From positions 32,001 to 96,000 of the IMG/VR virus record IMGVR_UViG_3300028591_000078: a stretch of DNA of 64,000 bases; one strand, 5' to 3'. Made by a program: the position numbers and the translations under genes. The DNA is from a virus. Taxonomy: Duplodnaviria > Caudoviricetes. Shown here in pieces: positions 13,677 to 14,030 of this stretch (position 1 is its first letter; every line of letters starts with the position of its first letter). The notes beneath the pieces were generated by a model. The model did no database searches and was not told the DNA's origin. It worked only from the letters and a program-made list of their open reading frames with translations.

Positions 13677-13705
13677 ATATTGTACATTAGTGATAACACT
13701 ATGAT

Positions 13706-13933
13706 AAACGAGTAATCGGGTGACCACTCGTTTATCAGGTTTGGGCCTTACCTATTCATAAAGGTAAGGCCAGGTTCAGGGAGATATTCGACTCCCTTAC
13801 CGCAATATAAAGCTCTAAATAAACTTCTAAGCCTTATGTATGCGGAGTTTGCAAGAATACTATCCTGCATTTCAATCACCCACCTTTCTGACTAACCCTG
13901 GAGATACTAGCTCCAGGGTTGTCTTTTATCTTT
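13706..13933 (+). ncRNA. Predicted cis-antisense RNA, copy 1
   Basis: AACA-CTATGA-TA at 13695-13706 points across the small ORF. The unit ends in hairpin AACCCTGGAG...CTCCAGGGTT followed by GTCTTTTATCTTT. No ORF on this strand. Confidence 0.5.
13748..13870 (-). CDS. Unannotated 40-aa small protein MQDSILANSAYIRLRSLFRALYCGKGVEYLPEPGLTFMNR (paralog of 34988-35143)
   Basis: SD-like AAAGGTGGGTGA upstream of the ATG; protein-level conservation with the second copy, including several synonymous changes. Confidence 0.75.
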   Translation of the reverse strand: MQDSILANSAYIRLRSLFRALYCGKGVEYLPEPGLTFMNR

Positions 13934-13988
13934 GGTTCACCGGTGGGTATAGTGAGTAAGTAGTATCACCTCCAATTCTTATTCTCTC

Positions 13989-14030
13989 TACTCACTATTA
14001 TAATATATAATTGAAATCTTTTAGTTTAGC
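13989..14030 (-). promoter_or_regulatory. Early-type promoter block (core TATATTAT-N5-TGA), copy 1
   Basis: 42 bp identical (inverted) to 34826-34867; 36 bp identical to 44636-44671. Core motif, some with one mismatch, also at +15180, +16211, -29053..29068, +42551, -45719..45734, -51488..51503. Resembles the phiKZ/AR9 early TATATTA-type motif. Confidence 0.75.

Follow-up and report, generated by a model that had tools for sequence, protein, structure and literature searches.

We found that this AR9-like rumen phage carries a repeated design, in which a small early unit is combined with a late-type promoter and a terminator that both face the opposite strand; the pairing recurs at independent loci and is a feature of this phage lineage. 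The window, that is, the whole stretch of 64,000 nucleotides analysed here, comprises C1:32001–96000 of a virus record of 238,365 bp (~238 kb) that is 97% complete. Public runs containing the phage record are mainly sheep and cattle gut metagenomes, and the capsid protein is 23–24% identical to the capsids of Listeria phage LPJP1 and Staphylococcus phage Machias. The Shine-Dalgarno (SD) sequences and the nearest named phages suggest a Bacillota host. The catalytic DxDGD motif of RNA polymerase (RNAP) is present in two separate large genes, one of which has an early promoter upstream, and these match what would be expected for a virion and a non-virion RNAP. Additionally, positions 49690–51500 of the window lack an ORF and contain ~50 degenerate 35-bp units, in which two conserved boxes alternate.

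Two copies of the unit lie 21 kb apart in the window as inverted homologues, with 80% mean column identity, flanks included, and all the parts described in the initial annotation are found in their places. Each copy begins with a 42-bp early promoter repeat of the virion-RNAP type, located at 13989–14030 on the minus strand in copy 1 (predicted +1 G at 13993) and at 34826–34867 on the plus strand in copy 2 (predicted +1 G at 34863). Both match the AR9-type early promoter form ATATATTAT-N6-G(+1), as compared with the published AR9 consensus (PMC5312081); the motif itself is present, and its use by the virion RNAP is presumed. The repeat is 100% identical in the two copies, as first described, but it is not peculiar to the pair, with ~13 occurrences genome-wide. 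The copy-1 slot is closed by a two-way terminator (13634–13677) that is found behind every cassette type. Copy 2 is followed, with no terminator in between, by a second cassette that shares its transcript (35198–35602, plus strand), consisting of a "type B" leader and a 101-aa ORF (35297–35602).

The leaders are indeed nearly identical, sharing a 55-nt block (100%) and a 35-nt block (97%). A strong SD that lacks a start codon (GGAGGTGAT; 13965–13973, minus strand, in copy 1 and 34882–34890, plus strand, in copy 2) lies ~20 nt from the 5′ end and 103–124 nt upstream of the start codon, and is invariant across all three paralogous leaders, including a third one outside the window (see below). 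Opening it costs ~1 kcal/mol when the leader is folded alone and 2.7–4.4 kcal/mol in longer copy-1 folds; it is also less open in longer folds of copy 3, and its unpaired probability in copy 2 is 0.84. No conserved start codon or upstream ORF follows it in any frame, and a leader peptide was rejected on the absence of a conserved start codon. As an accessible, strong start-less SD near the 5′ end, this element is a candidate STAB-SD or standby site. The real SD of the ORF (13875–13889, minus strand; 34967–34981, plus strand) is computed to be sequestered, in agreement with the initial annotation. Specifically, it pairs in 8/8 variants with an anti-SD strand (helix P2; 13942–13948, minus strand; 34909–34915, plus strand), and seven pairs of this helix are retained in all eight, with changes only to G-U. 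The computed sequestration is strong in copies 1 and 2 and mild in copy 3, in which the ribosome-binding site (RBS) costs 5.8 kcal/mol to open. For copy 1, the duplex of the real SD with a Bacillus-type 16S tail has an energy of −19.5 kcal/mol, and the opening cost is 9.6 kcal/mol. The initial annotation had called the product a potent early peptide, which is doubtful: in the comparison of all early units, no other start region is as costly to open as those of copies 1 and 2 (~15 versus 3.6–11.9 kcal/mol), and expression is therefore more likely slow or gated. The anti-SD strand starts 20–22 nt past the start-less SD in all three leaders. When a 30S-sized footprint was forced onto the start-less SD, the opening cost of the copy-1 SD fell from 9.6 to 3.4 kcal/mol, while the same model brought little gain for copies 2 and 3, which counts against an off-switch built on this leader. 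Since the footprint helps copy 1 and hardly the others, a standby role of the start-less SD is only possible.

The unit encodes a 40-aa peptide from an ATG in copy 1 (13748–13870, minus strand) and a 51-aa peptide in copy 2 (34988–35143, plus strand). Selection on the peptide, initially proposed from synonymous changes, is borne out by a dN/dS of 0.26 (dN 0.29, dS 1.10; 32 shared codons), but the differences go beyond synonymous changes and include 12 amino-acid replacements in the 32 codons, mostly conservative. When the same substitutions were placed randomly, the observed identity (p 0.004) and BLOSUM score (p 0.0002) were rarely reached, and the five other reading frames scored worse in this permutation test. 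Differences between the ORFs are distributed over the codon positions as 8/9/13, and the C-termini of the two peptides are unrelated. A check for frame disruption in homologues found ORFs of 40 and 51 aa in all strain variants, with indels confined to the leader and the region after the stop codon. Judged from these substitutions, selection shows the ORFs to code for real protein. The suggestion that the peptides lack a clear transmembrane helix was confirmed by hydropathy, with best 19-residue Kyte-Doolittle means of 0.72 and 1.07 for the 40- and 51-aa pair and of −0.19 to 1.07 across the peptides, versus 2.46 for the genome's membrane-type early protein. The peptides have no match in Pfam or PHROGs, and thus neither the hydrophobic transmembrane helix nor the family match that would mark a membrane-associated type I toxin was found. 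A low-confidence AlphaFold model of the 51-aa product (pLDDT 58) contains an N-terminal helix at residues 2–22.

A structured non-coding RNA with an incidental ORF was first suspected owing to the very strong folding of the sense strand (z −9.1 and −9.7 for copies 1 and 2) and to the ORF being a string of hairpins. Helices within the ORF are preserved through base changes, with a double change in the last hairpin of contig L084, and none of 500 synonymous recodings of the copy-1 ORF folded as well as the native sequence. We nevertheless consider this explanation highly improbable: the peptide is under selection, the strong SD is normally spaced, the same leader also drives an unrelated 60-aa ORF that has a 73% identical relative, and no Rfam match was obtained at gathering score. 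The folding z-score was rejected as a sign of non-coding RNA, as other small early units fold equally strongly (z −7.0, −7.3, and −10.9). As a rule, small early mRNAs of the phage fold much more strongly than shuffled sequences (z −4 to −11), as seen at genome positions C1 192981 (−), 112666 (+), and 233002 (−).

The antisense side of the unit consists of a late promoter past the stop codon and a terminator in the leader. AACA-N6-TA behaves as a late motif, as proposed, with 38 gene-upstream sites versus 5–11 for spacers of 4, 5, 7, and 8, and the two opposite-facing sites were verified at 13695–13706 on the plus strand (non-virion RNAP type, +1 at 13706) and at 35185–35196 on the minus strand (+1 at 35185). 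The core of these sites is invariant in seven distinct variants, while the flanks vary. On an extended matrix, which includes mRNA-leader bias, they score −3.3 and −3.9 versus a true-site median of 2.6, which counts against an antisense off-switch. The leader hairpin P3 (13894–13929, plus strand; 34928–34962, minus strand) has its U-rich tail solely on the antisense strand, as initially annotated, and is the predicted terminator of the antisense RNA. Specifically, the conserved A-rich stretch adjoining P3 is the U-tail of the opposite-strand terminator, likewise in copy 3, where P3 is kept with one double change; covariation in P3 is not significant (81/500 shuffles). The site positions predict antisense RNAs of 224 nt for copy 1 (13706–13929, plus strand), spanning the ORF, start codon, and SD, and of 258 nt for copy 2 (34928–35185, minus strand), close to the ~225–260 nt anticipated earlier. 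The 3′ hairpin of the sense unit (13702–13737; 35154–35189) would form the 5′ end of the antisense RNA in copy 1, and G-U pairs give this hairpin a mixed strand preference. Transcriptional interference, in which the non-virion RNAP would block early transcription by entering the unit, with no part played by the RNA, would suit the convergent geometry and the finding that antisense sequences of unrelated units share nothing. We regard it as distinctly improbable, given that in all five units with this arrangement the predicted late transcript ends ~65 nt before the early start, having covered the SD and start codon. A terminator placed past the SD and start codon and short of the early start suits RNA pairing better than promoter occlusion.

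The search for further copies, proposed in the initial annotation, yielded one more paralogous leader, the third, which lies outside the window (genome C1:18855, minus strand) and drives the unrelated 60-aa ORF mentioned above; the product of this ORF has no detectable relation to the 51-aa protein. The copy-3 allele of this genome carries a 105-nt in-frame deletion (C1:18630–18710, contig L006, seen against L164, L171, and L175) that shortens the basic 60-aa protein to 25 aa and takes away the antisense late promoter. Intact alleles of other strains have the antisense AACA-N6-TA at the ORF end together with the antisense leader terminator, and predict a 238-nt antisense RNA. The 1938-aa gene convergent with copy 3 (L164:1–826) matches metallophosphoesterases (PF00149). 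A uniform scan of the genome gave 19 early units, among which some may be false promoters, and five of them have an antisense-facing leader terminator under a rule of our own. An antisense late site is present in four of these five units versus none of the 14 others (Fisher p 0.0013; post hoc, the test having been designed after the first copies), or in 5/5 when the intact copy-3 allele is used; with the three paralogues counted once, the intact allele gives p 0.0015. The two units unrelated to the paralogues also contain both antisense parts: one (C1:133680, plus strand; 59 aa) predicts a 255-nt antisense RNA, and the other (C1:9713, minus strand; 63 aa) a 96-nt RNA over the RBS; the hairpin of the latter unit may also attenuate sense transcription. 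The pairing of antisense promoter and terminator therefore recurs at independent loci, the intact third paralogue included. Both parts together occur in 0/95 units of seven distant relatives, in which single late sites form a background of 11–16% of units; this absence was counted against an off-switch.

Gene content behind the repeated promoter varies among close strains. The copy-1 slot holds either the module or genes of ~94–103 aa with a different, pseudoknot-like leader, and these alternative cassettes sit between the identical promoter and terminator. In contig L085, the 3′ hairpin of the module is followed by a gene of the ~94–103-aa type, as behind copy 2 in the window, and leaders are mosaics of both copies. 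In the single contig L077 (1622 bp), the gene lying upstream of copy 2 is connected to the terminator and neighbour of copy 1, which is the junction that would arise if the 21 kb separating the promoters (window 14030–34826) were inverted; the crossover lies just upstream of the 42-bp repeat. From these sequences, the shared promoter repeat appears to be a cassette exchange point. The module is missing from the copy-1 site of several strains, which counts against an off-switch; with copy 3 deleted in this genome, single units are evidently dispensable. The slot family of ~94–103 aa (L071, L072, L075, L085, L086) diverges fast and has no Pfam match, and in PHROGs only matches with E 0.18 or worse. 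The type B leaders (window 35198–35296 and 44670–44830; genome C1:157140, plus strand, and 233002, minus strand; L071, L072, L085) form a conserved early family that shares an invariant 15-nt motif; their two interleaved helices co-vary between copies in a pseudoknot-like manner, and the last element of most copies is a hairpin covering the SD. Contigs L178 and L179 carry a frameshift within an A-run of the 100-aa gene that follows copy 2, and one base of the SD hairpin is also changed in L178.

Cassette exchange is also the starting point of an explanation by insulation, according to which the units are self-insulated mobile early cassettes: the leader hairpin would serve only to insulate against late transcripts that read through from convergent genes, the leader fold would allow translation only of RNAs started at the promoter of the unit itself, and the late motifs would be weak by-products. 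The exchange is real, the late sites score low on the matrix, the hairpins that resemble P3 in related phages are ordinary ones of the terminator type, and read-through RNA adds 3–5 kcal/mol to the RBS opening cost in copies 1 and 2. However, no read-through effect is seen in copy 3, copy 1 has no co-directional upstream gene, and every unit already has its own terminator at the end. The insulation explanation also leaves unexplained why an antisense late site accompanies the antisense terminator in every unit that has one and in 0/14 others, and we consider it rather unlikely.

In one sheep-gut metatranscriptome, an identical 195-nt contig covers 34977–35171 at a depth of 2.9, similar to neighbouring genes; as the contigs are unstranded, it is evidence for neither the sense nor the antisense RNA. 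Relatives of the peptides or leaders were not found in IMG/VR scans or GenBank phages, and an atlas search returned unnamed clusters only. A search of 1.84 billion representatives retrieved nothing beyond the paralogue and an evident chance match in a repetitive 1072-aa protein. Pattern matches in metagenomes and bacterial genomes were unrelated, bar one strain variant of copy 2, and blastn in 40 capsid-related phages found the promoter only. The three best leader-model matches in these phages were inspected and proved to be terminator-type hairpins.

To account for the paired antisense parts, we propose that stable early mRNAs with slow translation are turned off late by antisense RNA, with the two phage polymerases setting the timing, and give this reading an even chance. 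By analogy with AR9, the virion RNAP would start at the AT-rich early promoter. The resulting mRNA is predicted to fold, through conserved pairs, such that the start-less SD near the 5′ end is open and the start codon is hidden together with the real SD. A 30S subunit bound at the start-less SD would shield the RNA against 5′-to-3′ decay and may loosen the anti-SD strand 20–22 nt downstream, and the long-lived message would yield the peptide slowly. The soluble product of 40–60 aa is probably a host-takeover or counter-defence factor that would be costly if it persisted. Once present, the non-virion RNAP would start at AACA-N6-TA past the stop codon, and the 224–258-nt cis-antisense RNA would end at the leader hairpin, as the co-occurring sites suggest. 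The sense-antisense duplex over the SD and ORF would block translation, with RNase III cleavage probable, and the antisense RNA would thus remove a message otherwise too stable for decay. The shared promoter repeat would allow units to be exchanged among sites and among strains, and the intervening 21 kb to invert, as seen in contigs.

The same parts could also form a fail-safe or addiction module, i.e. a true type I toxin-antitoxin locus, in which the primary mRNA is inert, stable, and slowly activated; when late transcription succeeds, the antisense RNA would neutralise it, and upon loss or destruction of the phage genome, the peptide would be made and arrest the cell. This explanation agrees with RBSs that cost more to open than those of any other early unit, with several parallel loci, with the uncoupled translation typical of type I toxin mRNAs (PMC11295053), and with possible 3′-to-5′ pairings: in copies 1 and 2, the sense-strand loop of the 3′ hairpin complements the real SD, and 10/11 bp could form between the 3′ end and the RBS of copy 3. 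It is quite unlikely in our view, considering that the peptides are not hydrophobic, that toxin family matches are absent from Pfam and PHROGs, that the copy-3 RBS is only mildly hidden, and that a carrier state, putative for this phage, is presumed. A more speculative version, which we likewise find quite unlikely, would make the two polymerases a checkpoint: the virion RNAP would lay down stable silent mRNAs for unrelated harmful peptides, late antisense RNA would disarm them, and a stalled or phage-losing cell would be arrested, giving a dead-man's switch with five loci.

To our knowledge, the shut-off of early genes in jumbo phages with two RNAPs is poorly understood. Phages of this kind, such as AR9 and phiR1-37, have antisense RNAs of unknown use, and the genome described here offers a repeated, base-precise design: an early promoter, a stabilised but gated mRNA, and a late antisense promoter and terminator are predicted around four unrelated small proteins, and the exact 5′ and 3′ ends of the RNAs follow as predictions. 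The unusual care that the phage takes in controlling these small early proteins singles them out as good candidates for new roles in host takeover. AR9 has the same two promoter consensus motifs, and seven of its late promoters drive antisense RNA, mostly late (PMC5312081). The excerpted accounts of AR9 and phiR1-37 (PMC4848604) assign no role to the antisense RNAs and, unlike what is seen here, describe no paired promoter-terminator design around small early genes.

In its workings, the unit appears to resemble a type I toxin-antitoxin locus, here connected to two phage polymerases. As in hok/sok, fst/RNAII, txpA/RatA, and timP/TimR (PMC11295053, PMC8309996), several copies combine a small protein-coding ORF (<65 aa), a highly folded primary mRNA in which the SD is computed to be buried, and a cis-antisense RNA, here predicted, that spans the RBS and has a promoter and terminator of its own. 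The differences are that the unit resides on a lytic-type jumbo phage, that the peptides are not hydrophobic, and that the two strands, distinguished by RNA half-life in type I systems, are proposed here to be made by two phage polymerases at different times. We do not file the unit as a member, since the membrane-toxin feature is absent and toxicity is putative. The hidden RBS resembles type I toxin mRNAs (PMC11295053), while the start-less SD resembles the STAB-SD of cry3A, whose transcript starts at −129 (PMC4113751), and the RBS stabiliser of phage SP82 (PMC7509114), both with a strong start-less SD near the 5′ end; here, the element, putatively stabilising, is joined to a hidden real SD and an antisense unit. 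Finally, the PeSL cassettes of T4-type phages (PMC2839356) similarly use repeated early promoters as exchange points for small non-essential genes. Those promoters are of the sigma70 type, whereas here a phage-RNAP promoter is repeated, the cassette carries its own antisense control, and the inverted orientation of the copies permits the 21-kb inversion.
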